From NCBI GenBank assembly GCA_049699975.1, contig JBNAWB010000001.1, positions 24,534-88,533 on the forward strand: a stretch of 64,000 bases of DNA, in the 5' to 3' direction. The DNA is from Thermodesulfobacteriota bacterium. GTDB lineage: Bacteria > Desulfobacterota > SM23-61. The position numbers and the translations under genes are program-made. Every line of letters begins with the position of its first letter. Within the stretch, counting starts at the first letter, position 1. This document shows positions 12,248 to 50,524 of the stretch, one piece after another. The notes beneath the pieces are model-generated. The model was not told where the DNA came from. It did not search any database and saw only the letters and a program-made list of their open reading frames with translations.

Positions 12248-12279
12248 CAAGCAAAAATAAAAATAGAAAAGGAGGTTTT

Positions 12280-13542: not shown

Positions 13543-13549
13543 TCTGCAA

Positions 13550-13761: not shown

Positions 13762-13813
13762 CATGAAAAAAACTGACATAAGTGAGTAACAAAATGGGAA
13801 AAATAACAAAAAA

Positions 13814-14269: not shown

Positions 14270-14278
14270 GTAAAAGCA

Positions 14279-15247: not shown

Positions 15248-15265
15248 AAATATAAGGAGAGGGCT

Positions 15266-15589: not shown

Positions 15590-15596
15590 GGGGAAA

Positions 15597-16731: not shown

Positions 16732-16740
16732 GGAAGGCAC

Positions 16741-17010
16741 TTGACTCCGGATTTTGTAGGCCAGATTGCCAAAGAAGCTATTGAAGTTATTTTATTCATT
16801 TCTTTACCTTTCTTAGGCGTGGCCTTAATAGTAGGCTTAATCATCAGTATTTTTCAAGCAGCCACGCAAATTCAAGAGGCTTCTTTGCTTATCGTGCCTA
16901 AAATAGTTGTTTTTTTACTTACCCTACTCTTGTTGTCTCCTTGGGTAATGCAAAAAATGATTGGTTATACCGAAGACCTTTTGGCTAATCTGCCCCGGTA
17001 TGTGCATTAG
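16741..17010 (+). CDS. fliQ: Flagellar export apparatus protein FliQ
   Basis: An 89 aa two-TM protein; FliQ family by size, context and hydrophobicity. TTG start. Confidence 0.8.
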   Translation: MTPDFVGQIAKEAIEVILFISLPFLGVALIVGLIISIFQAATQIQEASLLIVPKIVVFLLTLLLLSPWVMQKMIGYTEDLLANLPRYVH

Positions 17011-17031
17011 CCAGATGAGGAATAAGCAATC

Positions 17032-17814: not shown

Positions 17815-17816
17815 AC

Positions 17817-18893: not shown

Positions 18894-18899
18894 TAAAAA

Positions 18900-21008
18900 A
18901 TGGCGGAAAAGAGAACTTCATCCTTATCTTTGCCTGGAGAAAAAGTAAGAATTGATCGCTCCGAAATTCTCATGGCCTTAGGGGTAGCTACTATCCTGCT
19001 GATCATGATCATCCCTTTACCCCCTTGGCTATTAGATATTTTCATTTCCTCTAGTATTACCATTGCTTTATTGATCTTGTTGACTGCTTTTTACGTACGC
19101 CAACCCTTAGAGTTTTCCACATTTCCTTCTGTGTTACTCATAACTACCCTTTTCCGTCTTTCTCTAAATATTGCCACGACCAGGGTTATCCTTCTGCATG
19201 GCAACGAAGGAACTGGAGCAGCGGGGGTAGTAATTAAATCTTTTGGCCACTTTGTCGTGGGGGGGAATTATGTTGTCGGCTTCATAATTTTCATCATCTT
19301 GGTCATCATAAATTTTGTGGTCATTACCAAAGGAAGCGGCCGGATTGCTGAAGTAGCCGCCCGGTTTACTTTGGATGCTATGCCTGGAAAGCAAATGAGC
19401 ATTGATGCTGATTTAAATGCCGGCCTTATTGATGAACAAGAGGCCAGGAGAAGAAGGGCCCAAGTATCCAGAGAGGCTGATTTTTATGGCGCCATGGATG
19501 GAGCGAGCAAATTTGTCAGGGGCGAGGCTATTGCTGGCATACTTATTATCTTAGTCAATATCATTGGTGGTTTTACGATCGGCGTTTGGCAACAGAATTT
19601 ACCCCTTTTGACGGCGGCGCAAACTTACACCATTCTCACTATCGGAGATGCCTTGGTTTCGCAAATTCCCGCCCTTATTATTTCCACTTCGGCTGGTATT
19701 ATTGTCAGCCGGGCCGCTTCGGAATTTAATATGGGGAAAGAGTTGAGTCGCCAATTTAAAGTCCAGCCGCAAGCCATCTATCTCTCCGCAGGAATCCTCT
19801 TCTTCTTAGGATTAATTCCCGGGTTACCCCATATTCCTTTTTTCCTGTTGGCTATCTTAGTTGGCTTAATTGCCCACCGAGCTTATCAAGAAGAACAAAG
19901 AAGAGCAGATTTAAGGAGAAAAGAAACAGAACAAAAAGTGGCTGCAACTCAAAAAACTGAGAATATAGAGGCTTTATTGGGATTAGACCGGCTGGAATTA
20001 GAAGTAGGCTACAGCCTCATTCCTTTAGTTGATGAAGAGCAAAATGGTGACCTCCTGACGCGCATTCGTTCTATTCGTCGCCAGATGGCTGCAGATTGGG
20101 GGTTTATAGTTCCTCCATTGCGGATTCGCGATAACCTCCAACTTAATCCCGGAGAATATAGAGTGCTCATCAAAGGCAATGAGGTGGCCCGGGCCGAAAT
20201 CATGACCGGTCATTTCTTGGCCATCGATCCCGGAGAATTAAAATATAAGATCGAAGGGATTCCTACGCAAGAACCAGTTTTTCAATTACCCGCTCTATGG
20301 ATTCCGGAAAGCAAAAGGGAAGAAGCTCAAATTGCCGGTTACACAGTAGTTGATAATTCAACCATCTTGACGACGCACTTGACGGAGATTATAAAAAACC
20401 ATGCTGCTGATTTGTTAAGCCGTCAAGATGTGCATAAGCTTTTAGAAAATTTAGCGCAAAATTATCCTAAGGTGGTAGAAGAATTAACCCCTAACCTTCT
20501 ACCTTTAGGGACTATCCAAAAAGTTTTGCAAAATTTACTGCGCGAACGAGTACCCATAAAAGATTTGTTAACTATTATGGAAACACTCTCCGATTATGCT
20601 TCTCTAAGCAAGGACCCTGATCTGCTTACAGAATATGTGCGCCAGAAATTAGGCCGCACCATCACCAAAAATTATGAAAATAAAGAAGGGGTGCTGCCGA
20701 TTATTACTTTAGAGCAGAAATTGGAGGATACTTTGCGGGAAAAAATTCAAAGAGGCGAACAGGGTTCATATCTGGTTTTAGAACCAATCTGGGCCCAAAA
20801 ATTATTAGCAGCTATTAAACAAACCTGGGAGCAAGGTGGGCAAATGGGCTATCCTCCTGTGCTTCTATGTTCTTCTGTATTAAGACGCCATTTGAAAAGA
20901 CTTTTGGAGCGCTTTATGCCCCAGGTGGCTGTTTTGGGACACAATGAAATTGCCTCCCCTACTAAAATTAAGTCTTTAGGGACGGTGAGCTTAGATTATG
21001 CAGATTAA
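18900..21008 (+). CDS. flhA: Flagellar export apparatus protein FlhA
   Basis: 702 aa with an N-terminal 8-TM domain, the FHIPEP region and a C-terminal cytoplasmic domain. Confidence 0.95.
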   Translation: MAEKRTSSLSLPGEKVRIDRSEILMALGVATILLIMIIPLPPWLLDIFISSSITIALLILLTAFYVRQPLEFSTFPSVLLITTLFRLSLNIATTRVILLHGNEGTGAAGVVIKSFGHFVVGGNYVVGFIIFIILVIINFVVITKGSGRIAEVAARFTLDAMPGKQMSIDADLNAGLIDEQEARRRRAQVSREADFYGAMDGASKFVRGEAIAGILIILVNIIGGFTIGVWQQNLPLLTAAQTYTILTIGDALVSQIPALIISTSAGIIVSRAASEFNMGKELSRQFKVQPQAIYLSAGILFFLGLIPGLPHIPFFLLAILVGLIAHRAYQEEQRRADLRRKETEQKVAATQKTENIEALLGLDRLELEVGYSLIPLVDEEQNGDLLTRIRSIRRQMAADWGFIVPPLRIRDNLQLNPGEYRVLIKGNEVARAEIMTGHFLAIDPGELKYKIEGIPTQEPVFQLPALWIPESKREEAQIAGYTVVDNSTILTTHLTEIIKNHAADLLSRQDVHKLLENLAQNYPKVVEELTPNLLPLGTIQKVLQNLLRERVPIKDLLTIMETLSDYASLSKDPDLLTEYVRQKLGRTITKNYENKEGVLPIITLEQKLEDTLREKIQRGEQGSYLVLEPIWAQKLLAAIKQTWEQGGQMGYPPVLLCSSVLRRHLKRLLERFMPQVAVLGHNEIASPTKIKSLGTVSLDYAD

Positions 21009-22046: not shown

Positions 22047-22943
22047 ATGGATCAGGCCGAACAACTGCGCATCATGATGAACAAGCAGACTTTTATAAGT
22101 CCAGATAAATTTCCCCGCCTTATTTCTATAAGTAGCGGTAAAGGGGGCGTGGGCAAGACCAATATAGTGGTAAATTTGGCGTTGGCTTTGGCAAAATTGC
22201 GCAAGAAAGTTTTAATATTTGATGCGGACATGGGGTTGGCTAATGTCAATATCCTTTTAGGGTTGGTCTGCCCCTATAACATCGAGCATCTTCTAAAAAG
22301 AGAAAAAAAGATGGAAGATATTTTAGTTGCTGGCCCTGAAGGCATAAATATTTTGCCAGCCAGTTCGGGCTTTTTAGAAATAGGGCGGCTGCCCGAATCA
22401 CAGCAACATTTTTTAATAAATGAGCTGCACCAAGTAATGAAGGCTGTGGATATTTTATTGATCGATACAGCCGCGGGAATCTCGGCTAATGTGGTGTATT
22501 TTAATTTAGCTGCCGAAGAAACGATTGTGGTCCTCACCCCCGAAGCTACTTCTTTAGCCGATGCCTATGCTTTAATAAAAATTTTGTTCGCGGAGCATGG
22601 CAAGAAAAATTTTTCTATTTTAGTTAATGCCGCCCGGAATAGCCAGGAAGCAGAGGAAGTTTTTAAAAAAATTACAAAAGTTGTACATCACTTTTTAGGG
22701 GATCTTACTTTAGATTATTTAGGATTTATACCTTTTGACAGCCGCATTGGGGAAGCAGTTAGGCAGCAAAGAGCCGTTTTAGACCTCTTCCCTCAAGCCC
22801 GCTGCAGCCGTTATTTTTTAGAAGTGGCCCGCCTGCTTGATAAGAAGAAGACCGTCCATGTATTGGCAGGGAGGGAATCCTTGTTCTGGAGGCCTGGGCA
22901 AAATTTTGGTTTTAGGGGAGGAAAAATAGGAGGAGAAAATTGA
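22047..22943 (+). CDS. flhG: MinD/ParA-family ATPase FlhG (FleN), flagellar number regulator
   Basis: Deviant Walker A SGKGGVGKT and a position between flhF and fliA. Confidence 0.85.
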   Translation: MDQAEQLRIMMNKQTFISPDKFPRLISISSGKGGVGKTNIVVNLALALAKLRKKVLIFDADMGLANVNILLGLVCPYNIEHLLKREKKMEDILVAGPEGINILPASSGFLEIGRLPESQQHFLINELHQVMKAVDILLIDTAAGISANVVYFNLAAEETIVVLTPEATSLADAYALIKILFAEHGKKNFSILVNAARNSQEAEEVFKKITKVVHHFLGDLTLDYLGFIPFDSRIGEAVRQQRAVLDLFPQARCSRYFLEVARLLDKKKTVHVLAGRESLFWRPGQNFGFRGGKIGGEN

Positions 22944-23737
22944 AAAATAAAAATAATTATTATCAAGGCTATCAAAGATTATTGAATTTTCCTTCATCTT
23001 GGAATGATTTCTCCTCGCAGAAAGAAGAAATGATCTTGAAATATGCCCCCTTAATTAAACAGGTTGTGGAACGGTTAGCCATCCGCCTTCCTGCGCATAT
23101 AAACAAAGAGGATTTATTCAGTGCCGGCCTAATAGGACTGCTGGACGCGCTGGCTAAATTCGATCCCGAAAAAAAAGTGAAATTTGAGACCTATGCCGAA
23201 ATTCGCATTAAAGGAGCGATCTTAGATGAATTGCGATCTCTGGATTGGTTTTCCCGTTCGGCGCGGCAAAAAGCTAACCATTTAGAAAAAGTTCTGCATG
23301 CTTTAGGTATGAAAAAAGGAGGAGATCTCGAAGACGAAGAGATAGCTCAAGAGATGGGCCTTTCTTTAAGGGAATATTATGATCTCCTCAATGAAATTCG
23401 GGCGGTCAATTTATTGGATCTCGAAAGCATAGAAGAAAAGCTCTTGCCCAATGGCGAAAAGAATTTATTTAATCTAATAACCGGAGAAATGGAAAATCAT
23501 CCTTTACATGAAATTACCTGGCAAGAATTAAAAAAAGATTTGGCTAAGGCCATAGAAGAGTTGGCGGAGAAAGAAAAGATTGTCTTGAATTTATATTATT
23601 ATGAGGAACTTACTTTAAAAGAAATTGGAGATGTCTTGGGTTACACGGAATCACGTATATGCCAAATACACGCCAAGGCCATTCTGAAATTACGGGCCAA
23701 ATTGAGGGAATATTTGGGAACAGAGGAGGCATCTTAA
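22940..23737 (+). CDS. fliA: RNA polymerase sigma-28 factor FliA
   Basis: Sigma-70 regions 2, 3 and 4 (region 4 HTH LKEIGDVLGYTESRICQIHAKAILKLR). TTG start preceded by AGGAGGA; an ATG start at 23030 is also possible. Confidence 0.85.
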   Translation: MKNKNNYYQGYQRLLNFPSSWNDFSSQKEEMILKYAPLIKQVVERLAIRLPAHINKEDLFSAGLIGLLDALAKFDPEKKVKFETYAEIRIKGAILDELRSLDWFSRSARQKANHLEKVLHALGMKKGGDLEDEEIAQEMGLSLREYYDLLNEIRAVNLLDLESIEEKLLPNGEKNLFNLITGEMENHPLHEITWQELKKDLAKAIEELAEKEKIVLNLYYYEELTLKEIGDVLGYTESRICQIHAKAILKLRAKLREYLGTEEAS

Positions 23738-33553: not shown

Positions 33554-33582
33554 GGGAGGTCAGGCAAGTCCGCAGGGCGTGG

Positions 33583-33648
33583 CCATCTCTTTAATTTCAA
33601 TGAGTTACGAGATCGCCGCGGTCTGCATGCTCCCTCGCGATGACCTTA
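33583..33648 (+). repeat. GC-rich structured intergenic repeat, family 2, copy A
   Basis: About 85% identical to the reverse complement of 50180-50250. Contains the palindromic core gctccctcgcga. Confidence 0.6.
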
Positions 33649-33745
33649 CTACACAGTCTCAATGAAGAGAGGATTAGAGTGAGGGGATAAATTATAAGTA
33701 AGGTAATTTGGGCATGGGGTCGAGTTGTATCAAAGAAGATGAAAA

Positions 33746-34060
33746 TTATTTCAAAATCTCGGCTAAAAATTCTTTAGCCAACTTTTCTGATAATGCCTGG
33801 ACATCAACTTGATATTTTCCCTCCGCAATCAATTCTTTCAATTTCGCAATTTTTGCGGATCTTTGTTCAGGTATGCTTTGGAGAAAAGAATAAATTTGTT
33901 GCAGCTCTTTAGATGCCTGAGAAAGTTCCACTTTGTCGCTTGCTTCCCCAGGAGATTTCTTAGCATCTAAGGCTACTTTTCTTTGTTCCGCCGAAGTAAG
34001 TTTTTCGGATTGGGTTATTACTCCGGTCGCTTGATCGGGTTTTACATTCGTCACTGTCAT
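33746..34060 (-). CDS. flgM: Anti-sigma-28 factor FlgM
   Basis: About 104 aa with the conserved FlgM C-terminus (RSAKIAKLKELIAEGKYQVDVQALSEKLAKEF). Confidence 0.8.
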   Translation of the reverse strand: MTVTNVKPDQATGVITQSEKLTSAEQRKVALDAKKSPGEASDKVELSQASKELQQIYSFLQSIPEQRSAKIAKLKELIAEGKYQVDVQALSEKLAKEFLAEILK

Positions 34061-34113
34061 GAAGATTTTCTCCTTTATGAGAAAAAAATTTAAAATTTTA
34101 TTTTTCTAATTAT

Positions 34114-34140
34114 TTTTCGGCAAATTTAAAAGAAACTTTA
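34114..34140 (-). promoter_or_regulatory. Sigma-28 (FliA)-type promoter for flgM: TAAA-N15-GCCGAAAA (read on - strand)
   Basis: The reverse complement of 34114-34140 reads TAAAgtttcttttaaatttGCCGAAAA. Confidence 0.55.
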
Positions 34141-34294
34141 ATTTTTCTAATCACCCCCCGCTTAGATAAATAAAAAATAAATTAACTCGGCAAATTTTGC
34201 AACCCTTTTTTGTTTGGTCAGGCCTTTTTTGCCTATTTAATCTTTCTATCAATTTTAACTATTAGAAAAAATTAGGGTTTTTAAATTCATCTTC

Positions 34295-34310
34295 TGGCAT
34301 ATCCTTTGCT
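34295..34310 (+). promoter_or_regulatory. Sigma-54 promoter: TGGCATatcctTTGCT
   Basis: Correct -24/-12 spacing, about 40 nt upstream of the first gene of the glycosylation island. Confidence 0.6.
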
Positions 34311-34351
34311 GAAATTAAAATATGGAATTTTTCTTGTAAGGAGGAATAAAA

Positions 34352-35071
34352 ATGGGCATTTTGGCAAATGTTACAGCGGCCATATTGGCTGGTGCTTGGG
34401 ATCCTTCCTTCCGTCGCTTCTTTCCTGATCAGCCTAAAGTTTTAACAGAAATTGGAGGTAGGCCTTTTCTTTCTTATATATTGGACCATTTACAATTATT
34501 TGGATTGAAAGAGATAGTCCTGTGTACTGGCTACCGCGGCGAGAAGATAGAAGAAGTATTTGGCAGTAGTTATAAAAGTATGCGCCTTTGGTACTCAAAA
34601 GAATTTTCTCCTCGCGGCACAGGAGGAGCGCTGAGGCTTGCCCTACCCTTCTTTAGATCAGCGCAAATTTTAGTTTTAAATGGTGATTCCTTTTGCGAGG
34701 CCAACTTGGAATCTTTTTGGCGCAGCCACATGGCCTGGGGCGCTGATGTGAGTATTGTATTAACCATGGCTCCGGAAAAATCAGGCTATGGGGTTGTAAT
34801 AACGGATGAAGACGGTTTTGTTTATAAATTTTCCGATAAGAAATTATTAGGTTCTTATGGCTGGGTAAATGCAGGCATTTACTTAATCAAACGTAATTTA
34901 ATTAGAAGTATTGCCCCTGGAAGACCAGTTTCCTTGGAAAGAGAAATGTTTCCTTCCTGGAGAGGACAAAAAATTTTCGGCCACCGCTTAGCCAGTAAAT
35001 TTTTTGAAATAAAAACTCCAGAAAACTATGGGCAAACTGATCTTATCTTTGCTTTTAGCAAGTCTCTATAA
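34352..35071 (+). CDS. Sugar-phosphate nucleotidyltransferase-like protein (divergent G-loop)
   Basis: NTP_transferase fold (AILAGAWD..FRRF...KVLTEIGGRPFLSYILD, GYRGEKIEE), but the canonical GGxGTRLxPLT signature is replaced by GAWDPSFRRF. Confidence 0.6.
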   Translation: MGILANVTAAILAGAWDPSFRRFFPDQPKVLTEIGGRPFLSYILDHLQLFGLKEIVLCTGYRGEKIEEVFGSSYKSMRLWYSKEFSPRGTGGALRLALPFFRSAQILVLNGDSFCEANLESFWRSHMAWGADVSIVLTMAPEKSGYGVVITDEDGFVYKFSDKKLLGSYGWVNAGIYLIKRNLIRSIAPGRPVSLEREMFPSWRGQKIFGHRLASKFFEIKTPENYGQTDLIFAFSKSL

Positions 35072-35147
35072 ATATGCTCTAATCAAAATTAAATTTTTTC
35101 CAAATTACAGCGCGAAAAAATATTTAAAAGATAAAAGGAATAAATAT

Positions 35148-35684
35148 ATGGATGTATTACAAAATAAAGAAGAATTGGAAAAATGGTATGAAAATCCGGA
35201 TCCTTGGGGGTATGAAAAAAATCCTGAAGATCTTAACAGAAAAGCCATACTGCTTTCAGCAATTCCCAAAAAGCCCTATAAAAAAGTTTTAGATATAGGG
35301 TGCGGAAATGGCTTTATTACTAATTCTCTTCCTGGAGAAAAAATTATCGGCATAGATATTTCTTCTCGGGCAATCGAGTATGCGAAGAGAACTTGTCCCC
35401 CTCATATTGAATTTTTTCCCTATTCAATTTTTGACCTTCCTTTTTTAGGTTGGGGAAAAGATTTTGATCTTATAGTCATAACTGGAGTCCTATATCCCCA
35501 GTATATAGGTAATAGTGAAAAGTTAATTTATACAATCATTGATGATCTTTTGATTTGTAGGGGGATATTAGTTTGTTGCCATATTGAAGAATGGTATTCA
35601 GCTCGATTCCCTTATATTACTTTGCATAGAGAATATTATTCTTATCGAGAGTATGTTCATATTCTGGAGGTATATTTAAAATGA
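35148..35684 (+). CDS. Class I SAM-dependent methyltransferase
   Basis: Motif I VLDIGCGNGFIT. ATG 35148 with an AAAAGGA Shine-Dalgarno; the longer frame from 35028 overlaps the upstream gene. Confidence 0.7.
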   Translation: MDVLQNKEELEKWYENPDPWGYEKNPEDLNRKAILLSAIPKKPYKKVLDIGCGNGFITNSLPGEKIIGIDISSRAIEYAKRTCPPHIEFFPYSIFDLPFLGWGKDFDLIVITGVLYPQYIGNSEKLIYTIIDDLLICRGILVCCHIEEWYSARFPYITLHREYYSYREYVHILEVYLK

Positions 35685-38600
35685 TCCTTTTGTACCACAA
35701 AGTTTACCCAGAGTCACCATCTATATGGTGGGTAACTCCCAATGAGTTCTGGAGACAAATGGAAGAATTAAGGCGTTGTCAAGTTGTTTATTTAGACGAA
35801 TATGACCCAAATAATCCAGATCAAGTAGTTATAACTTTTGATGGCATATACGAAAATGTATTTACCCATGCCTTTCCTATCTTGAAAAAGTTTGGATACC
35901 CTTTTGAACTTTTTATTATTGGAAACTTCATTGGCAAAAATAATAGCTTTGATCAAGGAGAGCCTCTAATTAATTTTGCTGGCTCCGCTCAGCTAAGAAG
36001 TATGGTTCAGCATGGTGGACGATTACAATGGCACTCTTGGTCTCATCCAGATTTAAGTAAAATCAACAAAAAAGAAGAAATAGAGTCTGAGATTTTTATT
36101 CCTGCCCATATAAGAGATTTAGATCCAAAGGGATTTGCTTGGTTTGCTTATCCTCATGGACGTGTGCCATCTTTTGGGCAGCAGATCATAAAAGATTTTT
36201 TCAAAGGAGCTGTTTTATGTGATCAAGGAAAAGATTACGATCTCTATAATCTTAAAAGGATAACAGTTACTAATAAAACAAGTTTTGCTAAATCGACTGT
36301 ATCTTTAATTATAGCCAATTACAATTACGGACGTTTTGCAGCAGAGGCTATCGAATCAGCTATTCACCAAACTGTTCAACCGGATGAAATTCTTTTTATC
36401 GATGATTGTTCAGAAGACAATTCTATGGAGGTAGCGAACCGTTACAAAGAAAAAATAAGAATTGTTAGAAATGAGAGAAATTTAGGTATAGTTGATAATT
36501 TTAACAAAGCAGTTTCTTTAACTTCGGGGAAATATATATGCTTTTTAGGGGCTGATAATCGCTTGCGAAGCGACTATATAGAAAAATGCAAATTAGCTCT
36601 GGACTTGCATCCACAGGCCGCGATCGCTTATACAAATATTATTATTTTCGGCCCCCGAGCAGAAATTCTTGCACATAAAGTCCATGCCTCCCCTATAGAA
36701 GAATGCAAGGAAATTTTTTTATGGCGATTTCCTGAGTTTACTGACGAAACAAAGCAACTCCTCAGATCAAGGAATTTTATCCATGGCTCGTCCATGTATA
36801 GGCGAGAAGCCTTCGAAGAGGTGGGTGGCTACAAAAAATCTAATGGCCCCGAGGATCATCATCTATTTATACGCATTATAGATAAAGGATGGAAAGCTGT
36901 TCTATGCCCCGAATTCTTACTTGAATATCGGCAACATTCCAATGATCAAGCAAACACATATCTTAATATGGGTATAGAATTAGCTTTCCTTCGACGACAA
37001 TACAATTTGTTAATTCAGCAATTGGAAGCTTTAATGAAAAAAGAAAAAATAATTCAACAAACCCTTCATCAAGTATCTACTCATGCCCAACAAGAGAAGG
37101 TAGAAGAGGCAATTGAAATAATCCTCGAAACTTTAAGGAAATTTCCCGAGCATGGGAAACTGATCTTACAATATGCTCTACTTCTTAAGCTAAAAGGATC
37201 TGCTGATCAAGCCAAAAAGTACTTTGAGTATGCTCTTCTTTATAATCCTAATTTTAGAGAATTAGAGAAATATTATAATGATAAAAATATTCGCCCCCCA
37301 AAAGGCGTTGGCAATAGTGAGGGAGTTATATTGGGCCAAAATACTACCCCAAAAGTAGATCAAGTGATAGATCCAACTCCTGAAGGAGCCAATGCAGACT
37401 TAGAGGCAATTATGAAACGGAAGCAAACTCAAGTAAATAGTAATGAAAATTCAAAAAATGATACAAATTTATCCACAAAAAAAGAAAATCAAAATGGGGT
37501 TAGAGTTTCTATAATAATTCCTGTTCATAATCAATTGGAATTTACGCGAAATTGTTTAAAAGGTATTTTTGAGCATACAAATGAAAGCTATGAGCTGATA
37601 ATAGTAGATAATGCTTCATACGATGGAACAAGAGAATTTATTTTGGGGCTAAAGGAGTACCCGATAAGGCCTTTATTTTTGTCAAGCAACATTGGTTTTG
37701 GAAGGGCTTGTAATTTAGGCGCTAAAATTGCAAAAGGTAAATATCTTGTTTTTTTAAACAATGATACAGAAGTAACCCATGAATGGCTTAAACCATTAGT
37801 TCAGTTTATGGAAAATAATTCTGATTGTGGTGCGGTAGGATCAAAACTTGTTTATCCTGATGGAAGACTTCAGGAGGCTGGAGGAATTATTTTTGCAGAT
37901 GGCCAGGGTTGGAATTATGGTCGGGGAATGGATCCATCTGACCCTCGTTTTAATTTTGTCAGAGAAGTTGATTACTGTTCAGGGGCGGCGCTAATGATTC
38001 GAAAAAATGTATGGGATGAAATAGGAGGTTTTGATTTGCGCTACGCCCCAGCCTATTATGAAGATACAGACTTGTGCTTCGAGATCAGGAAGCGTGGCTA
38101 CAAAGTATATTATCACCCCAGAAGCGTTGTCCTTCATCATGAAGGAAAAACAGCAGGTACAGATCTTCAGTCGGGATATAAAAAATATCAGGAAATAAAC
38201 CGCTTTAAATTTATCGGAAAATGGAGAGCGGAACTAAAAAAACAATTTCCTAATGATCCTAGAAATGTATTTAAAGCCTCTGATAGACGGGCCATGAAGA
38301 ACATTTTGGTGATAGATGCTTTTCTTCCTTTTTATGATAGAGCTTCTGGTTCTCTCCGTTTATTTCAAATTCTAAAAATGTTGAAGAAATTAAAATTCCA
38401 TATAACTTTTCTGGCTAGGGACGGCTCTTTGGAAAGTCAATATCGCCCAGTTTTAGAAGAGATGGGGATAGAAGTTTATGCTGGGGATTATGAAGCTATG
38501 AAGGCTGCAGGATATAAAGATAACCCATGGCATTCTATTTCTTACGACTCTCTTTTTAAATATCGATCATATGATTTTGCGTTAATTGAATTTTGGGAAG

Positions 38601-40864
38601 TGGCAAATTATTACAGTCCCATTATAAGAAAATTTTCTCCCCAAACAAAGATAATTATTGATACAGTGGATATTCATTTTGTTAGAGAAATGCGCGAGGC
38701 TGAACTAAAGCAAAATCCTGAACTTAAAAGGAGAGCATTATTAAATAAAGAGAGAGAAATAGCTGTTTATAATAAGGCTGATAGAATTTGGGTGGTAACA
38801 GAGAACGATAAAAAGGCTATAGCAAATCTCGTAAATAATATACCAATTGATGTCGTGCCCAATATTCACGAAAGAAATGATTTTATAAAAAAATATGAAG
38901 AAAGTTCAGATCTTCTTTTTGTGGGCAACTTTAACCATCCACCTAATAGAGATGCAATTCATTTCTTTTGTCGAGAAATTTTTCCTCTTATTAAAAAGAA
39001 ATTATCGGGAGTGAAATTTTATATCGTGGGCAATAATCCTCCAGAAGATATTAAAATGTTGGCTTGCTCGGAGATAATTGTGACAGGTTATGTCCCAGAT
39101 CTGAGTCCTTATCTTAAAAATGCCAGAATCACTGTAAGTCCTTTGAGGTATGGAGCAGGAATGAAGGGAAAGATTGGAGAGGCTCTTTCCTGGGGATTAC
39201 CTGTTGTTACTACTTCTGTCGGGGCAGAAGGGATGGAATTGATAGACGGAGAAGATGCCTTGATTGCAGATTCTCCTGAGGAATTTGCCGAGAAAGTAGT
39301 TCAGCTTTATCATGATCCTATTCTCTGGAAAAATTTGTCCGATAAGGGAAAGAAAAAGGTCGAAATTAATTGGGCTCCAGAAGTTATAAATAAAAAATTA
39401 GCAGAAATCTTTGGATCGGAAAAATTGCAAGTGGAAGAAAGGCTTATTTCAATAATAATACCTATGCACAATCAATTCAAATATACAAAAAAATGCCTTG
39501 AAAGCTTATTTAATTATACAGATGTACCTTTTGAATTAATAATTGTCAATAATGGATGTACAGATGAAACCCCTGAATATTTAAAAGCAATTAGAGAAGG
39601 AAGGCAGTCTATTGCGGGTTGGAAGTTTTTTGCAGAAGAAAATGGAGAAATAAAAGAAAAAAGATTTGGTGGGAAAAGGAAAAATAAAAAGAAAAAAGCT
39701 ACAAAATATTTCTACTGCAAAAGGTTTAAAATAATTTCTAACGATAAAAATATGGGATTTGCTGCAGGTAATAACCGAGGAATAGCAGAGGCAAAAGGAG
39801 ATTATATCCTCCTCCTAAACAACGATGTGGTGGTTACTCCAGGATGGTTAAAAAGAATGTTGAATATAGCCGAAAGAAAATCCGAAATTGGTATAATTGG
39901 ACCAATGTCCAATTACGTTTCTGGGCCTCAACTCCTTGAGGATGTAAAATATAATATCCACACCTTAGAAGGGCTTAATGAATTTGCGATTCAATATGCT
40001 CAAAAAAACCAGGGACGAGCAAGACAATTCTGGAGAGTTGTAGGCTTCTGTATGCTCATTAAAAAAGCAGTTATAGAGAAAATAGGAGGATTAGATGAAA
40101 GATATGGAATTGGGAATTTCGAAGACGATGATTTTTCAATTAGAGCGCGGCTCGCAGGTTTTGAATCCTGGATTGCTGAGGATAGTTATGTCCATCATTT
40201 TGGTAACAGGACGTTTATAGGAGAGTCCATAGAATATTCTGAAAGCTTAAAGAGAAATTGGGAAATATTCAAAAAGAAATGGGGGATTCCGGAGGATATC
40301 GAGTACGGAGCTAAGTATGATCTGGGTTGGATTTTAAATCAAGACTTTGATCCAATCAAGCATTATTACCCAATAAATGCAGATGAATTATCAATTTATC
40401 AGGGCGAGGCATTATTTAATATGGGGGATATGGAAGGAGCAGAACATATTTTTCAAAGAATTCTCTCTTGGGATCCTAAAAATGTAGATGTTTTAAATGA
40501 TTTGGGAGTCATTTGTTTCCAAAAAGGAGAATTCGAGCAGGCAATTGCTTATTTTAACCAAGTCCTAAAATTGAACGAAAATCATTCCGAAGCTTTAGAA
40601 AATTTAGGAAATTGTCTTATTGCCCAAAGTAAGTTTGGAGAAGCAATCTCCTACTACGAAAGGGCTTTGAATTTGAGGCCAAGAGATGTAAGCCTTCTAA
40701 ATTCTCTTGCCAATTGTTTTATCCACTTAGAAGACTACGCCAAGGCCGAAGAGGTTTATAAAAAATCTTATCAGATAGATAACCATCAGATTCATGTAAG
40801 GGAAATCATTAACGAGATAGATAAGATGAAGATGTTCGAAAATCAAGGGAGCATGGTTACATGA
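35681..40864 (+). CDS. Giant multi-domain glycosylation enzyme: polysaccharide deacetylase (CE4/NodB)-GT2-TPR-GT2-GT4(GT1-fold)-GT2-TPR (1727 aa); candidate flagellin glycosyltransferase
   Basis: CE4 motifs ITFDG and HSWSHPD at the N-terminus, then three GT-A modules (SLIIANYNYGRF...DDCSEDNS; VSIIIPVHNQLEF...IIVDNASYDGT; ISIIIPMHNQFKY...NNDVVVTPGWL), one GT-B module (...SPLRYGAGMKGKIGEALSWGLPVVTT), and TPR repeats in the middle and at the C-terminus. Confidence 0.8.
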   Translation: MILLYHKVYPESPSIWWVTPNEFWRQMEELRRCQVVYLDEYDPNNPDQVVITFDGIYENVFTHAFPILKKFGYPFELFIIGNFIGKNNSFDQGEPLINFAGSAQLRSMVQHGGRLQWHSWSHPDLSKINKKEEIESEIFIPAHIRDLDPKGFAWFAYPHGRVPSFGQQIIKDFFKGAVLCDQGKDYDLYNLKRITVTNKTSFAKSTVSLIIANYNYGRFAAEAIESAIHQTVQPDEILFIDDCSEDNSMEVANRYKEKIRIVRNERNLGIVDNFNKAVSLTSGKYICFLGADNRLRSDYIEKCKLALDLHPQAAIAYTNIIIFGPRAEILAHKVHASPIEECKEIFLWRFPEFTDETKQLLRSRNFIHGSSMYRREAFEEVGGYKKSNGPEDHHLFIRIIDKGWKAVLCPEFLLEYRQHSNDQANTYLNMGIELAFLRRQYNLLIQQLEALMKKEKIIQQTLHQVSTHAQQEKVEEAIEIILETLRKFPEHGKLILQYALLLKLKGSADQAKKYFEYALLYNPNFRELEKYYNDKNIRPPKGVGNSEGVILGQNTTPKVDQVIDPTPEGANADLEAIMKRKQTQVNSNENSKNDTNLSTKKENQNGVRVSIIIPVHNQLEFTRNCLKGIFEHTNESYELIIVDNASYDGTREFILGLKEYPIRPLFLSSNIGFGRACNLGAKIAKGKYLVFLNNDTEVTHEWLKPLVQFMENNSDCGAVGSKLVYPDGRLQEAGGIIFADGQGWNYGRGMDPSDPRFNFVREVDYCSGAALMIRKNVWDEIGGFDLRYAPAYYEDTDLCFEIRKRGYKVYYHPRSVVLHHEGKTAGTDLQSGYKKYQEINRFKFIGKWRAELKKQFPNDPRNVFKASDRRAMKNILVIDAFLPFYDRASGSLRLFQILKMLKKLKFHITFLARDGSLESQYRPVLEEMGIEVYAGDYEAMKAAGYKDNPWHSISYDSLFKYRSYDFALIEFWEVANYYSPIIRKFSPQTKIIIDTVDIHFVREMREAELKQNPELKRRALLNKEREIAVYNKADRIWVVTENDKKAIANLVNNIPIDVVPNIHERNDFIKKYEESSDLLFVGNFNHPPNRDAIHFFCREIFPLIKKKLSGVKFYIVGNNPPEDIKMLACSEIIVTGYVPDLSPYLKNARITVSPLRYGAGMKGKIGEALSWGLPVVTTSVGAEGMELIDGEDALIADSPEEFAEKVVQLYHDPILWKNLSDKGKKKVEINWAPEVINKKLAEIFGSEKLQVEERLISIIIPMHNQFKYTKKCLESLFNYTDVPFELIIVNNGCTDETPEYLKAIREGRQSIAGWKFFAEENGEIKEKRFGGKRKNKKKKATKYFYCKRFKIISNDKNMGFAAGNNRGIAEAKGDYILLLNNDVVVTPGWLKRMLNIAERKSEIGIIGPMSNYVSGPQLLEDVKYNIHTLEGLNEFAIQYAQKNQGRARQFWRVVGFCMLIKKAVIEKIGGLDERYGIGNFEDDDFSIRARLAGFESWIAEDSYVHHFGNRTFIGESIEYSESLKRNWEIFKKKWGIPEDIEYGAKYDLGWILNQDFDPIKHYYPINADELSIYQGEALFNMGDMEGAEHIFQRILSWDPKNVDVLNDLGVICFQKGEFEQAIAYFNQVLKLNENHSEALENLGNCLIAQSKFGEAISYYERALNLRPRDVSLLNSLANCFIHLEDYAKAEEVYKKSYQIDNHQIHVREIINEIDKMKMFENQGSMVT

Positions 40865-42609
40865 AAAAAGGTAAAGGTATCAAACTTTCTCTTTGTATGA
40901 TTGTGAAAAATGAAGCCCATAATCTAAAGGATTGCATTCACCCCTTAAAATCAATTTTAGATGAAATCATTGTAGTAGACACCGGTTCTACGGATCAAAC
41001 GAAGGAAGTGGCCAAAAGCTTGGGTGCTAAGGTTTTTGATTTTCAGTGGTGTAATGATTTTTCTGCTGCCCGAAATGATTCCATCCGCCATGCTACCGGT
41101 GATTATATCCTCTGGCTCGATGCGGATGATCGAATTGATGAACAAAACATCAAAAAAATCGGGCAGTTAAAGAATAGTTTATCAGCAAGCAGAGATAAAG
41201 CCTATTATTTAATAATAAATAGCCAATCACCTGTAGATGGAGAGACTCGTTTTCGGCAAATAAGAATATTTCCAAAGATAAAAGGGACTCTATTTGAAGG
41301 AAGGGTCCATGAGCAAATTTATTATAGCCTTAAACGCCAAGGAATAAAATTTGAGAATATGGATATTGAAATTAGACATATAGGGTATTCAGATTCTGAA
41401 ACCATTATTAAAAAAGCTCAAAGAAATCTTTCTATAATTGAAAGCGAACTGAGCGTAAAACCTAATGATTTAATATTACATTATAATGCCGCGCGTACTC
41501 TGGCCATGATTGGCCGAAAAAAAGAAGCAATTTATCATATGAAAATTATAACCAAAAATAAAAATATCAGAAAGCGGGAAAAACAATTCTATTTGGAATG
41601 CGCATTATTGATGGGCAAGTATTACGTTGAATTAGGGTCATATGGAGAGGCTGTTTCCATCTTTTCTGAATTAAGCAAAGATTTTAAAGATAATGCTTTA
41701 GTCCATTTTTGCTTGGGGCAAGCTTATTTCCATTCCCGAAATTACGACCAGGCAATAAAGCATTTTCACGAGTCGCTCCTTTTCCCTTTAGAAGTTGGTC
41801 TATTGCCGATTAACCTAAACCAGCTACGTTACGATTTACATTATAGCCTAGGCCAATGTTTTTTAGAAAAAGGCCAGAATGAATTAGCTAAAAATAATTT
41901 TTTAAGATCTTTGCAATTTAGAAATGACTTGCCTAAAAGTTACCAAGCCTTAGGCCTATTATATCTTAAAGAGGGAAATTTTGAAGAAGCAATTAAGTAT
42001 TATGAGAAGGTCATTTTGTCAGAAAGAGCTACCGATCAAGATTATACAAACGTGGGTTTGGCTTATCGAAAGCTTGGCCTATATAATCAAGCAGAGGAAG
42101 CTTTCCAAAAAGCCTTAGAGATCAATCCTCAAAGAATAGAAGCCTTAACTAATTTAGGACATCTCTATTATGCAAATAAAGATTACTATAAAGCAGAGGA
42201 ATTTTTTAAAATGGCTTTAACCTATGATGCCAATTTAATTGATATAAGATTAATCTTAAGTGATATTTATTTTCGCTTTTACGAGATCGAAAATTTAATA
42301 TCGCAATGTGATGCTCTTTTGAGAATTCTTAATTTACCTCGCCACATCACCATAAATAATTTCGCAGAAATAAATGCTTTATATAAGAAAATGGCCGAGA
42401 TTTTTTCTGCCCTTGGGCAAGAAAGGTTCGCTCTTTTAGCCTGGAAAACAGCTTTTTTAATTTATCCCCAGGAAGAAATCTTGGAAATGATCATCAACAA
42501 AGCAATCACTTTAGGATTGAAGGAAAAAATAATAAGAGAATTGAATGAGATAATAGAGTTTTACAAGCAGAAGGAAAAGACTGAGGAAGTTTCTTTTTTG
42601 GCCAACTAA
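40861..42609 (+). CDS. GT2-family glycosyltransferase fused to C-terminal TPR repeats
   Basis: N-terminal GT-A domain (LSLCMIVKNEAHNL...VVDTGSTDQT...WLDADDRI), then about 350 aa of TPR repeats. Confidence 0.8.
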   Translation: MKKGKGIKLSLCMIVKNEAHNLKDCIHPLKSILDEIIVVDTGSTDQTKEVAKSLGAKVFDFQWCNDFSAARNDSIRHATGDYILWLDADDRIDEQNIKKIGQLKNSLSASRDKAYYLIINSQSPVDGETRFRQIRIFPKIKGTLFEGRVHEQIYYSLKRQGIKFENMDIEIRHIGYSDSETIIKKAQRNLSIIESELSVKPNDLILHYNAARTLAMIGRKKEAIYHMKIITKNKNIRKREKQFYLECALLMGKYYVELGSYGEAVSIFSELSKDFKDNALVHFCLGQAYFHSRNYDQAIKHFHESLLFPLEVGLLPINLNQLRYDLHYSLGQCFLEKGQNELAKNNFLRSLQFRNDLPKSYQALGLLYLKEGNFEEAIKYYEKVILSERATDQDYTNVGLAYRKLGLYNQAEEAFQKALEINPQRIEALTNLGHLYYANKDYYKAEEFFKMALTYDANLIDIRLILSDIYFRFYEIENLISQCDALLRILNLPRHITINNFAEINALYKKMAEIFSALGQERFALLAWKTAFLIYPQEEILEMIINKAITLGLKEKIIRELNEIIEFYKQKEKTEEVSFLAN

Positions 42610-42615
42610 ATATTT

Positions 42616-42641
42616 AAGTTTTCTCACAAGCGGACGATAAA
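42616..42641 (+). promoter_or_regulatory. Sigma-28 (FliA)-type promoter for flagellin: TAAG-N14-GACGATAA
   Basis: One mismatch each from the TAAA / GCCGATAA consensus. About 90 nt upstream of fliC. Confidence 0.55.
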
Positions 42642-42731
42642 TAATTCGACAAAAGCCCGGGCTCAAAGTCAAAATTAATTCAAATCATGGGCAAGGATGC
42701 CCAAAATTAAAAAATCAAGGAGGAAAAAACT

Positions 42732-43568
42732 ATGGCACTAAGAATTAATACTAATGTGGCGGCTCTAAATGCCCATCGGCAACTTACGGATACTGACGCC
42801 AGATTGTCAGTGTCTATGGAAAGATTGTCATCCGGCTATAGAATTAACAAAGCTAAAGATGACGTAGCCGGACTTTCCATCGCTAACAAGTTCAGAATGG
42901 AAGTAAGAAGCCTGAGAATGGCGCAACAGAACGTTTCCCAGGCGACAGCCATGTTACAAATGGCTGAAGGAGGTGCCCAGAAGATTGAGTCTATTATTGA
43001 ACGTTTAAAAGAATTGGCGACTCTTGCTGCTTCAGATAATACGGATAGCACTGGGAGAACGAGTCTCAATGCTGAGGCAGAAAAACTTATTTCAGAAATA
43101 GATCGGATAGCCAACGACACTAAATATAGTGGCACAGCTATGTTGAATGCTGCCATTAGTTTTAATTTCCAGGTTGGTTCAGGGAATACCGCCACTGAGG
43201 ATCGGATTGCCGTGAGCACCAGTGATGGCTTATTATCAAACGACTTGGGATTAAATTCTTTATCCCTAAGCAGCTTAGCTTCTGCTCAGGAAGCTTTAAC
43301 TTCTATTGATAATGCTTTGACTTCGGTTAATACGATATTAGGCGAAATTGGTGCTGCCCAGAGTAGATTGGAATTTGCCGCTGCTAATTTAGCCATTACA
43401 ATAGAGAATATTGCCGCTACTGAATCGACCATCAGAGATGTGGATATGGCCTTCGAAGTGGTTAACTTTACCAAGAATCAGATCTTGCTCCAGGCAGGAA
43501 CAGCCATGCTTGCCCAGGCTAATATGGCTCCGCAGAGCGTTCTCGCCTTACTTGGCGGTGGCCGTTAA
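42732..43568 (+). CDS. fliC: Flagellin (short, 278 aa)
   Basis: Conserved flagellin N-terminal D0/D1 (MALRINTNVAALNAHRQL...LSSGYRINKAKDDVAGLSIANK) and C-terminal D1/D0 helices. Confidence 0.9.
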   Translation: MALRINTNVAALNAHRQLTDTDARLSVSMERLSSGYRINKAKDDVAGLSIANKFRMEVRSLRMAQQNVSQATAMLQMAEGGAQKIESIIERLKELATLAASDNTDSTGRTSLNAEAEKLISEIDRIANDTKYSGTAMLNAAISFNFQVGSGNTATEDRIAVSTSDGLLSNDLGLNSLSLSSLASAQEALTSIDNALTSVNTILGEIGAAQSRLEFAAANLAITIENIAATESTIRDVDMAFEVVNFTKNQILLQAGTAMLAQANMAPQSVLALLGGGR

Positions 43569-50037: not shown

Positions 50038-50179
50038 GGCGAACTTAAATTGGAGAACAGCAATAAATACTAAAAAAATAATAATTTTTTTTAATGCCCA
50101 AGCTAAAAAGTGGAGAACTTCATGACGCCTCAAGAACATTTCCTCCTTACCATCTCCTCTCCTTAGGGAAACTATATTG

Positions 50180-50250
50180 TAAGGTCCTCGCGAGGGAGCG
50201 CAGGGACCGTGGCGATCTCATAACGCTTTGAAATTAAAGAGATGGTCAGG
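50180..50250 (-). repeat. GC-rich structured intergenic repeat, family 2, copy B (inverted relative to copy A)
   Basis: The reverse complement aligns to 33583-33648. It is embedded in a GC-rich island (about 50180-50340) within an AT-rich divergent intergenic region. Confidence 0.6.
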
Positions 50251-50524
50251 CTTCGCTACCTCAAGTGCGGAGTCCCTCGCCATGACGGAAAATGCGTCGC
50301 GACCCAATCTCAGTGGGCAGAGGCAGGGAAAGGGAAGTCATTGAAAATTCCAATAATAATCTCACTCTTCAGTGAGAGATTAATAATTTTTATTGCTCCA
50401 TTTAAGAAAATTAAAATTCACCCGATATTTTAACCAGACTTGGATGAAAATAAATTCTCTTCAAGAAAAGAATAAAAAGAAGAAGGAATTTTTATAAAAA
50501 ATTACCATTTAGAGGAAAGAAGGA

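Follow-up and report, generated by a model that had tools for sequence, protein, structure and literature searches.

A Thermodesulfobacteriota MAG, from an uncultured bacterium of the sulfate-reducer type, carries, wedged between flgM and the flagellin gene, an operon of four genes which, judging from sequence, is probably a flagellin O-glycosylation system inserted in the flagellar cluster. The operon is bordered by flgK-flgL-(csrA)-fliW-flgM on its 5′ side and by flagellin-flaG-fliD-fliS on its 3′ side. An earlier note on this DNA had located four ORFs, the module order of gene 3, a 278-aa flagellin downstream, and a perfect sigma-54 promoter, and all these positions were confirmed. The features of the locus, numbered along the window (the whole 64-kb stretch of DNA that was analysed), are the following.

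34295..34310, + strand: sigma-54 (-24/-12) promoter of the glycosylation operon, TGGCATATCCTTTGCT, TGGCAT-N5-TTGCT
34352..35071, + strand: gene 1, sugar-1-phosphate nucleotidylyltransferase of the GDP-mannose / GDP-heptose (HddC) type; Pfam NTP_transferase 4.7e-17
35148..35684 (open from 35028), + strand: gene 2, class-I SAM methyltransferase, weakly NodS-like; Pfam Methyltransf_31/25/11, NodS 28 bits
35681..40864, + strand: gene 3, multi-module glycosyltransferase of 1727 aa, no transmembrane segment
40861..42609, + strand: gene 4, GmaR/SunS-type GT2 (aa 1 to ~260; DTGSTD, DADD) with a C-terminal TPR array, candidate flagellin Ser/Thr O-glycosyltransferase
42615..42640, + strand: sigma-28-type promoter of the flagellin gene, TAAGTTTT-N10-GACGATAA, read from sequence
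42732..43568, + strand: flagellin, 278 aa, presumed acceptor; Pfam Flagellin_N and Flagellin_C, aligned with orthologues

Sigma-54 flagellar promoters follow the pattern GG-N10-GC, with the consensus TGGCAC-N5-TTGCW. The window contains four perfect matches to TGGCAY-N5-TTGCW, all on the + strand, versus 0.08 expected; the three sites other than that of the island stand before a sigma-54 activator (EBP) gene, fliK, and fliL. Upstream of the orthologous operons of two related loci, L001 and L003, the site is invariant while its flanks have diverged. By its predicted promoter, the glycosylation operon is sigma-54-controlled and of the flagellar class. An enhancer-binding protein (Sigma54_activat plus HTH_8, 2231-3331) and fliA (22940-23737) are encoded in the window, and both sigma-28-type boxes of the flagellin gene are kept in L001 and L003.

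Most of the larger ORFs of the window were scanned with Pfam, and the rest are presumably flagellar from synteny with L001 and L003. Outside the island, the scanned ORFs are of the flagellar/chemotaxis type, the two exceptions being a fragment of a DctM transporter and an ORF that matches no family. Genes for Maf, FlmG, or the biosynthesis of nonulosonic acids (Pse/Leg) were not found among the Pfam-scanned ORFs, in agreement with the earlier note, and glycosylation of the Maf/Pse type was rejected on this ground. Similarly, neither the island nor the examined ORFs of the 64-kb window include an initiating phosphoglycosyltransferase, a flippase, a ligase, or wzm/wzt. No RNA family of Rfam was detected in the window at the gathering threshold.

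In a phmmer search against PDB the product of gene 4 matches GmaR (22ao) with E=2.5e-32 over aa 9-198 and SunS (7msp) with 8e-23. Pfam places a GT2 domain from aa 10-100 and beyond, followed by TPRs (TPR_1 2.5e-31, TPR_2 5.7e-30; four repeats above threshold), and the DADD of gene 4 is aligned with the DADE of GmaR, a DxD motif. The protein belongs to the GmaR/SunS-type family but is not a SunS orthologue, because it scores 78.6 bits against the NCBIfam SunS model, the equivalog cutoff of which is 350. The combination of GT2 and TPR is the signature by which flagellin glycosyltransferases are predicted in the field (PMC13317340). A GmaR-like gene directly precedes the flagellin gene in six loci of two phyla (the window, L001, L003, L007, L058, and L083). 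The presumed acceptor has a Ser/Thr-rich central segment, with 17 such residues among the 60 at aa 141-200.

As in Listeria monocytogenes GmaR, a beta-O-GlcNAc transferase (PDB 22ao), an N-terminal GT-A domain is followed by TPRs in a protein whose gene adjoins that of flagellin. Gene 4 presumably moves a sugar straight from a nucleotide sugar onto Ser/Thr of cytoplasmic flagellin; SunS and ThuS, which are related to GmaR, are peptide S-glycosyltransferases. The Listeria system differs in that it adds a single GlcNAc with no extension and in that GmaR is also the anti-repressor of MogR, whereas the operon of gene 4 encodes a methyltransferase, a CE4 domain, and four further GT modules as well. 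The earlier note took FgtA of Paenibacillus as the model; GmaR turned out to be the closest characterised relative of gene 4, and the papers found use the name FgtA for enzymes of Pseudomonas aeruginosa and C. difficile. A TPR domain for flagellin recognition is also shared with Maf and FlmG (PMC7591256; bioRxiv 2023.12.03.569772), the catalytic folds and donors (CMP-Pse/Leg) of which are, however, different.

Pfam agrees with the earlier description of gene 1 as nucleotidyltransferase-like and of gene 2 as a SAM methyltransferase. The top NCBIfam matches of gene 1 are Man-1-P guanylyltransferase and HddC, each under its own cutoff, and its top PDB matches are HddC (6jq8, 5e-22) and Man-1-P guanylyltransferases. 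The gene is found in L001 and is missing in L003. In the case of gene 2, the start at 35028, which would overlap gene 1, is doubtful: its homologues are 178 aa long, and an ATG at 35148 with an AAAGGA ribosome-binding site matches this length. The true start is therefore probably 35148, and the overlap of genes 1 and 2 is probably not real. The similarity to NodS in PDB (3ofj) is weak (E=1.6e-6), and the sequence does not decide between N- and O-methylation.

The giant enzyme encoded by gene 3 consists of the following parts.

35681..36265, + strand: module 1 (aa 1-195), CE4-fold domain of the PplD/IcaB/PgaB type; LYH (4-6), TFDG (52-55), HSWSH (118-122), AYPHG (156-160)
36299..36931, + strand: module 2 (aa 207-417), GT2 with GT-A fold; IDD, and a non-canonical invariant GADNR where DxD is expected
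36956..37270, + strand: long helix (aa 426-454), then a vestigial TPR-like hairpin region (aa ~470-530); AF2 model, TPR_2 below cutoff
37313..37504, + strand: low-complexity linker (aa 545-608), junction of two ancestral ORFs; split point in L058, L007, and L083
37505..38251, + strand: module 4 (aa 609-857), GT2; Pfam Glycos_transf_2 9e-29, VDNAS...NND motifs
38288..39427, + strand: module 5 (aa 870-1249), GT4-type GT-B; Pfam Glyco_trans_1_4 7e-31, EX7E at aa 1183-1191
39446..40270, + strand: module 6 (aa 1256-1530), GT2; Pfam Glycos_transf_2 1.6e-28 in two stretches
40370..40861, + strand: module 7 (aa 1564-1727), TPR array of at least three canonical repeats; Pfam TPR_2 1.4e-30, TPR_1 1.7e-29

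Domain mapping by Pfam (Polysacc_deac_1 at aa 44-163; Glycos_transf_2 at 208-381, 610-777, and 1256-1511; Glyco_trans_1_4 of the GT4 module at 1077-1212; strong TPRs at 1573-1701) reproduced the module boundaries proposed earlier within ~10 aa. As had been claimed, one polypeptide thus combines a CE4-fold domain with four GT modules, all intact, and with TPRs at the C-terminus, and a separate GT2-TPR protein comes after it. No transmembrane or amphipathic segment that could serve as an anchor is evident (maximum KD19 hydropathy 1.38). The start at 35681 is right since Y5-H6-K7 are invariant in the family; the public annotation (P0001, 1701 aa) begins 26 codons downstream of it. Exact-sequence look-ups with the gene 3 protein of the window and with P0001 gave no match.

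Canonical CE4 enzymes display the motifs TFDD, H(S/T)xxH, RxPY, and LxH. Module 1 has the (beta/alpha)7 fold of CE4, and its HSWSH and LYH are invariant, with LYH at the N-terminus, an order as in IcaB/PgaB-type enzymes. It deviates in having TFDG, with a single Asp, for TFDD and AYPHG in place of RxPY. The first GT2 of gene 3 has GADNR instead of a canonical DxD. The activity of the CE4 domain and of this GT2 is uncertain because the canonical Asp and DxD are missing, though the variants are invariant. Module 6 is split by a lysine-rich basic insert of ~45 aa (aa ~1300-1345). The two TPR arrays that had been proposed fared differently: the C-terminal one is genuine, while the middle one reaches 20.9 bits for TPR_2 versus a cutoff of 27. 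It was rejected as a full module, since at the position of the window's linker (aa 545-608) relatives carry canonical TPRs that amount to ~120 extra residues; by this alignment it is a remnant of a larger, deleted TPR array. The helix preceding it, after the CE4-GT2 unit, is a coiled-coil candidate in the model.

Judging from relatives, gene 3 arose by fusion of two genes, which Ignavibacteriales-like genomes keep apart: a CE4-GT2-helix unit and a GT2-GT4-GT2-TPR unit. In the Ignavibacteriales-like loci L058, L007, and L083 the linker position separates two ORFs, CE4-GT2-TPR-MT and TPR-GT2-GT4-GT2-TPR. Orthologues of 1632-1858 aa, uninterrupted and with equal domain order, occur in L001, L002, L003, and L004, which come from independent assemblies (sources ENA, NCBI, Logan, and JGI). 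The set of methyltransferase, CE4-GT2, GT2-GT4-GT2, GmaR-like GT, and flagellin is found in Thermodesulfobacteriota (the window, L001, and L003), in the Ignavibacteriales-like L007, L058, and L083, and in L084. The GmaR-like GT and the CE4-GT2 protein are a single fused protein in L084, and in L009 this GT forms the C-terminus of an adjoining 2205-aa protein.

According to gene order, the methyltransferase gene and the N-terminal CE4-GT2 module are a conserved cassette: the homologue of gene 2 lies directly upstream of the CE4-GT2 gene, its stop overlapping the start of the latter, in about 54 of 60 genome loci. In ~30 genomes of many phyla, including the non-flagellated Flavobacterium, Pedobacter, and Kordia, the cassette directly follows wzm-wzt. 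The CE4-GT2 cassette is 46–65% identical to proteins of non-flagellated bacteria, and the GT2-GT4 pair of gene 3 is 36–42% identical to the equivalent pair in proteins of wzm-wzt loci. TPRs are absent from the N-module proteins of wzm/wzt loci (0 of ~34). Conversely, all 15 TPR-bearing N-module proteins are without wzm/wzt in their flanks (within 10 kb), and of the nine TPR-bearing loci whose flanks are informative, seven lie in flagellar clusters, usually with a GmaR-like GT alongside or fused. A phmmer search of the window and of the flanking regions in L001, L003, L007, and L058 revealed no Wzm/Wzt homologue, nor is wzm/wzt present among the called genes of L083 and L084. All ten Wzt proteins abutting the cassette match the cap-binding domain Wzt_C of Pfam, nine of them above the gathering cutoff. 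This domain reads caps such as methyl groups (PMC9445017), and chain terminators are typically multimodule proteins with a coiled coil (PMC11231755). From gene order, we infer that the cassette is a chain-terminating or capping unit. A literature search yielded no paper on a CE4-GT2/methyltransferase cassette or terminator. The cassette, tightly linked in many phyla to Wzm-Wzt transporters that read caps, may represent a terminator of O-polysaccharide chains of a new type.

In O-polysaccharide systems with an ABC transporter, the chain end is modified by a methyltransferase, a kinase, or a Kdo transferase, and the terminator protein carries a coiled coil as a molecular ruler. The terminators characterised so far (methyl-phosphate kinase/methyltransferase pairs, Kdo transferases) do not include the CE4-GT2 and methyltransferase cassette. 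As in those systems, a methyltransferase accompanies the multi-module protein, here translationally coupled upstream of gene 3, and a long helix is predicted after the putative terminator module. The presence of several GT modules in one polypeptide is reminiscent of WbdA/WbdD of E. coli O9a and of Klebsiella O4, O7, and O12 (PMC11231755, PMC3482155). Unlike those ABC-transporter systems, the island is without wzm/wzt, has added TPR arrays, lies in a flagellar context, and has a putative protein-priming GT in place of WecA-type initiation. The likeness to NodC/NodB/NodS of rhizobial Nod-factor synthesis and to the CE4 de-N-acetylases PplD, IcaB, and PgaB is an analogy and not membership: the NodS similarity is weak, the motif is TFDG for TFDD, and an acyltransferase is lacking.

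Among flagellin systems, the multi-sugar islands (P. aeruginosa a-type, C. difficile type B, the Aeromonas heptasaccharide) attach a first sugar to Ser/Thr and extend it stepwise in the cytoplasm, as is proposed here, and they and Azospirillum have in common a glycan related to the polysaccharide chemistry of the cell. In these islands the GTs are separate single-domain proteins, and neither a CE4 domain nor a fusion of seven modules is reported for any of them. The a-type glycan of P. aeruginosa, which has up to 11 sugars, is a precedent for two-stage priming and extension, and Azospirillum brasilense flagellin is one for an O-antigen-like repeat glycan, the enzymes of which are not identified in the review (PMC3958885). 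A search of the literature on giant flagellar GTs and on FgtA of Paenibacillus found no paper describing the present system. The earlier suggestion that the architecture may be undescribed stands only to this extent: the protein joins two ORFs that Ignavibacteriales-like genomes keep separate, and its N-terminal cassette, with the methyltransferase upstream, is widespread in wzm-wzt loci.

We propose that gene 1 would supply a GDP-hexose or GDP-heptose donor. Gene 4, with its GT2 domain and TPR array, would bind unfolded flagellin in the cytoplasm and place the first sugar, by analogy a HexNAc, on Ser/Thr of the central segment; this primer would then be extended and finished by the 1727-aa enzyme ahead of flagellin export. 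Elongation would fall to the GT2-GT4(-GT2) unit, and the cassette may add an amino sugar, de-N-acetylate it, and/or methylate the chain end. The flagellar lineage would have lost the ABC transporter and gained TPR arrays and a protein-priming GT, the outcome being an O-polysaccharide-type assembly line on a protein-linked primer and not on undecaprenyl-PP-GlcNAc. The earlier note envisaged one sugar per module and a defined oligosaccharide. This is not the only reading, and a capped repetitive chain is equally possible because the relatives of gene 3 belong to polymerase/terminator systems.

More tentatively, and with some doubt, one may suppose that an O-antigen-type assembly line was moved from the undecaprenyl/Wzm-Wzt route onto flagellin, with a GmaR-like HexNAc prime mimicking Und-PP-GlcNAc and a TPR-equipped fusion enzyme building a capped, length-limited, possibly repetitive glycan in the cytoplasm. 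If so, the methyltransferase and CE4-GT2 cassette would stand for a class of O-polysaccharide terminators that is widespread but uncharacterised, and the carbohydrate-binding domain of Wzt would recognise their cap, which may be an amino sugar that has been de-N-acetylated and methylated. Much is known about flagellin glycosylation with nonulosonic acids and in a few pathogens, and enzymes for long or repetitive O-antigen-like flagellin glycans, as in Azospirillum, are not known. The locus is a compact candidate, with four genes and no membrane components, for the retargeting of a polymerase/terminator to a protein acceptor, which is of interest for glyco-engineering.

It is unlikely, although conceivable, that the giant enzyme and the methyltransferase make a lipid-linked (undecaprenyl-PP) surface polysaccharide, O-antigen-like or sheath-like, which is merely co-regulated with flagella, its transporter and initiator being encoded elsewhere and gene 4 at most touching flagellin. 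Proteins encoded right after wzm-wzt do share 36–65% identity with the N-terminal cassette and with the GT2-GT4 pair, and the acceptor chemistry may be unchanged because the relatives of the cassette are clearly in lipid-linked pathways. In L002 and L004, the loci of close relatives of the giant enzyme, it and the methyltransferase are outside flagellar loci and the GmaR-like GT is absent nearby, which also speaks against the flagellin reading, and the narrow flagellar export channel might block a long polymer. However, the genes that a lipid-linked pathway would need are missing from the island and the examined window ORFs, no TPR-bearing version has wzm/wzt within 10 kb, the GmaR-like GT is physically joined to the neighbouring proteins in L084 and L009, and an equal gene set adjoins flagellin in two phyla.

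The operon could also glycosylate targets other than the filament (FliD, FlgL, pilins, or many cytoplasmic and secreted proteins), the TPRs serving general protein recognition. The GmaR/SunS-type GT2-TPR family is very large (>7000 matches at E<1e-15), and most of its members are certainly not flagellin-specific; SunS modifies a peptide, and L002 and L009 have no flagellin gene within 10 kb. We nevertheless regard such a broader role as improbable, given the position of the GmaR-like gene immediately before flagellin in six loci of two phyla, the flagellar-class promoter that drives the operon, and the action of GmaR, the nearest characterised homologue, on flagellin. As for the 1727-aa ORF, an artefact, whether from chimeric assembly or from read-through between separate genes, is hardly credible. 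The modules do form two ORFs in Ignavibacteriales-like genomes, and in the window they are joined by a low-complexity linker, but the chimera that the earlier note named as a refutation is excluded because the architecture recurs uninterrupted in four independent assemblies, and a public MAG protein is 100% identical to gene 3. Besides generic GT2 matches, a scan of metagenome contigs with the N-module as a single query revealed one close relative on a 3-kb contig.

Flagellar and chemotaxis genes form a supercluster of about 60 kb that fills the window, part of a Thermodesulfobacteriota MAG, as judged by Pfam searches of its ORFs. These searches assigned a sigma-54 activator gene, fliF, fliK, flgE, fliL, flhB, flhA, flhF and fliA, a further set comprising flgK, flgL, fliW and flgM, and, downstream, motAB, cheA, cheW, MCP genes, cheR and cheB. 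Four co-directional ORFs (genes 1-4) occupy the gap between flgM and a flagellin gene, exactly where the earlier note had placed them:

2231-3331, sigma-54 enhancer-binding protein gene, without a receiver domain
22940-23737, fliA
33746-34060, minus strand, flgM
34352-35071, gene 1, short nucleotidyltransferase
35148-35684 (likely), gene 2, class-I SAM methyltransferase
35681-40864, gene 3, 1727-aa multi-module enzyme
40861-42609, gene 4, GT2 plus TPRs
42732-43568, flagellin, 278 aa

Sequence analysis detected no transmembrane segments in any of the four island proteins. The G+C content of the 8-kb island (34000-42000) is 0.35, against 0.40-0.42 in the flagellar genes on either side, and its proteins share 51-70% identity with those of a Thermodesulfobacteriota locus, L001 (L numbers denote homologous loci in other genomes), against 82% for flagellin. 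Low G+C and lower identity thus point to a fast-evolving or horizontally exchanged insert.

Pfam resolves the giant enzyme encoded by gene 3 into the following modules:

aa 44-163, Polysacc_deac_1 (the CE4 domain)
aa 208-381, first GT2
aa 610-777, second GT2
aa 1077-1212, Glyco_trans_1_4 (GT4), EX7E motif at 1183-1191
aa 1256-1511, third GT2, broken by a lysine-rich insert
aa 1573-1701, strong TPR array

A middle TPR module had also been proposed in the earlier note; its Pfam score is sub-threshold. Alignment with relatives indicates that about 120 residues of canonical TPRs have been lost from the window protein, which retains one or two helical hairpins and a low-complexity linker. The start at 35681 is correct, since Y5-H6-K7 is invariant in the family. 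The public protein, P0001 (1701 aa, 100% identical to the giant ORF), begins 26 codons too late, leaving off 35681-35758 and with it the CE4 domain's invariant LYHK. The invariant motifs of the N-terminal module are LYH, TFDG, HSWSH and AYPHG; the domain therefore retains the His-His metal site and the putative catalytic His, with one Asp of the TFDD of CE4 enzymes absent. The first GT2 has an invariant GADNR at the expected DxD position. The lysine/arginine-rich insert (…GGKRKNKKKKATKY…; 39570-39715, aa ~1300-1345) that divides the third GT2 might bind membranes or nucleic acids, or form a disordered loop.

Orthologues that keep this module order in one unbroken ORF occur in L001 (1858 aa, ENA), L002 (1829 aa, NCBI), L003 (1666 aa, Logan) and L004 (1632 aa, JGI). 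Synteny with the window is full in L001; L003 is also syntenic, without gene 1. Three Ignavibacteriales-like genomes (L007, L058, L083) have the modules split over two adjacent ORFs, CE4-GT2-TPR-MT (1042 aa; MT, methyltransferase) and TPR-GT2-GT4-GT2-TPR (about 1240-1300 aa), followed by a GmaR-like GT2-TPR gene and then the flagellin gene. This arrangement argues that two genes have truly fused into the giant ORF, with the linker at aa 545-608 as their junction.

The GT domain of gene 4 aligns with the one solved for the Listeria flagellin O-GlcNAc transferase GmaR (E=2.5e-32), DxD motif included; the peptide S-glycosyltransferase SunS is the second-best match. Gene 4 is thus a candidate GmaR-type protein glycosyltransferase within a wider GT2-TPR family that is very large and unnamed. 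The earlier note had named FgtA of Paenibacillus as a comparator; the papers found use this name for P. aeruginosa and C. difficile enzymes, so the comparator was misnamed. The underlying GT2-TPR idea stands, because GT2+TPR is the accepted mark of non-Maf flagellin glycosyltransferases (PMC13317340). Gene 1 matches Man-1-P guanylyltransferases and the GDP-heptose enzyme HddC best, all under curated cutoffs. The likeness of gene 2 to NodS is weak. Its 218-aa ORF, open from 35028, is probably over-extended, since homologues have 178 aa and there is an ATG at 35148 with AAAGGA ahead of it.

In BLAST matches to the giant protein, only the first ~455 residues (CE4 + GT2) are common to nearly all; this part is always N-terminal (46-65% identity), and the C-terminal modules differ between proteins. 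An exhaustive search for the whole CE4-GT2 unit gave roughly 60 clusters at 50% identity. Sampling one genome per species yielded 60 loci, whose neighbours were compared by phmmer, in Proteobacteria, Bacteroidota, Chloroflexota, Cyanobacteria, Nitrospirota, Acidobacteriota, Saccharibacteria, Bacillota and Actinomycetota. A methyltransferase homologue lies directly 5' of CE4-GT2, its stop overlapping the start, in about 54 of the 60, and about 30 have the order wzm - wzt - MT - CE4-GT2. Loci with this block, with or without a terminal helix (L005, L013, L016, L023-L030, L033, L038, L039, L044, L046, L051, L054, L055, L057, L060 and others), span many phyla, including non-flagellated Bacteroidota and one Bacillota genome. 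Their Wzt proteins have 400-500 aa, and Wzt_C was matched in all ten tested (above the Pfam gathering cutoff in nine). Wzt_C recognises the cap, such as a methyl group, at the non-reducing end of O-polysaccharide (PMC9445017), and characterised terminators are part of multimodule proteins that include a coiled coil (PMC11231755). From gene order only, we infer that MT + CE4-GT2-helix serves to terminate or cap the chain. The block is probably an uncharacterised type of O-polysaccharide chain terminator; a literature search for it found none.

Loci with the N-terminal module fall into two mutually exclusive types. Type A has wzm/wzt within 10 kb, no TPRs in the N-module protein (0 of ~34 loci) and often a stand-alone protein of 490-600 aa. 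Type B never has wzm/wzt within 10 kb, always has TPRs (15/15 loci) and is typically fused to more GT modules. Flanks were informative for nine TPR-bearing loci, seven of which lie inside flagellar clusters (the window, L001, L003, L007, L058, L083 and L084); the other two are L002 and L009. A GmaR-like GT is encoded nearby in the window, L001, L003, L007, L008, L058 and L083. In L084 it is joined to the CE4-GT2 protein at the C-terminus, and in L009 it makes up the C-terminus of a neighbouring 2205-aa protein. Neighbourhood analysis found it in none of the wzm/wzt loci. This pattern of co-occurrence and fusion is the strongest computational evidence that the giant and GmaR-like enzymes may act in one pathway, on a protein, flagellin. 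The pair in L009, a Syntrophales MAG, appears to be a still larger variant with different tailoring chemistry: a CE4-GT2-TPR protein fused to a radical-SAM/SPASM domain (10001-13681) and, 3' of it, a TPR-MT-GT2-GT4-...-GmaR-like-GT-TPR protein (13763-20380).

The sigma-54 promoter proposed earlier is a perfect element, TGGCATATCCTTTGCT, at 34295-34310, 5' of the operon. Four copies of the consensus are present in the window, always on the coding strand, against 0.08 expected; the other perfect sites (2060-2075, 9924-9939, 13746-13761) stand 5' of the sigma-54 activator gene, fliK and fliL. With its activator gene and these three further promoters, the cluster seems to have its own sigma-54 regulator and regulon besides fliA. 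The element is invariant 5' of the orthologous operons in L001 and L003, where the surrounding sequence has diverged. The consensus also lies just 5' of the methyltransferase gene in L004 (4894-4909), L009 (9353-9368) and L036 (9428-9443), loci that are non-flagellar or not shown to be flagellar, so sigma-54 control of the cassette may be older than its flagellar association. A separate, conserved promoter of the sigma-28 type precedes the flagellin gene, whose leader carries a conserved hairpin, GGGCAAGGATGCCC, with GGA in the loop (42689-42702) and a second GGA within the Shine-Dalgarno AAGGAGGA (42717-42724), both invariant in L001 and L003. Two-site CsrA binding is the pattern of the CsrA-FliW-flagellin partner switch, which this leader appears to match; fliW lies upstream of flagellin in the window, and csrA was called beside fliW in L001 and L003.

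Direct evidence covers the identity of the domains, conserved motifs of catalytic type, the structure of the operon and its class of promoter, synteny and the gene fusions. In the mechanism we propose, gene 4 would prime flagellin on Ser/Thr, of which the central segment has 17 in 60 residues. Chain extension would fall to the GT2-GT4-GT2 unit, for which the gene-1 product may supply mannose or heptose; the CE4-GT2 unit, with the methyltransferase, would finish or cap the chain, and the TPR arrays may grip flagellin or a partner enzyme. For P. aeruginosa a-type strains and Azospirillum, the literature records flagellin glycans of several sugars, some even repetitive in an O-antigen-like way, as well as two-stage priming and extension (PMC3958885). 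These precedents make a multi-sugar or repetitive glycan a plausible product here, of a size that must suit the export channel.

A lipid-linked polysaccharide merely co-regulated with flagella is an unlikely alternative, as no transporter or initiator was found among the window ORFs examined and the gene fusions speak against it. Proteins other than flagellin are somewhat less probable targets still, given the flagellin adjacency in two phyla. An assembly artefact would be very improbable: uninterrupted orthologues in four independent assemblies rule it out in practice. The earlier observation is therefore confirmed, and its interpretation is supported in part. Flagellin glycosylation islands are already known; what is new is one made of O-polysaccharide-type modules, including an uncharacterised MT + CE4-GT2 cassette, joined in one giant enzyme with TPRs. 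Its value lies mainly in the idea, open to testing, that a polysaccharide assembly line has been redirected to protein, and in the widespread uncharacterised cassette beside cap-reading Wzt transporters.

Between fliW and flgM, which are convergent, is a GC-rich structured element (33555-33700; MFE -50.3 kcal/mol, z=-3.1). Rfam gave no match for it, and it resembles a REP or MITE. Ahead of cheA, at 50155-50251, it recurs in inverted orientation (81% over 99 nt), and a partial copy is found in L001 at 7758-7810.
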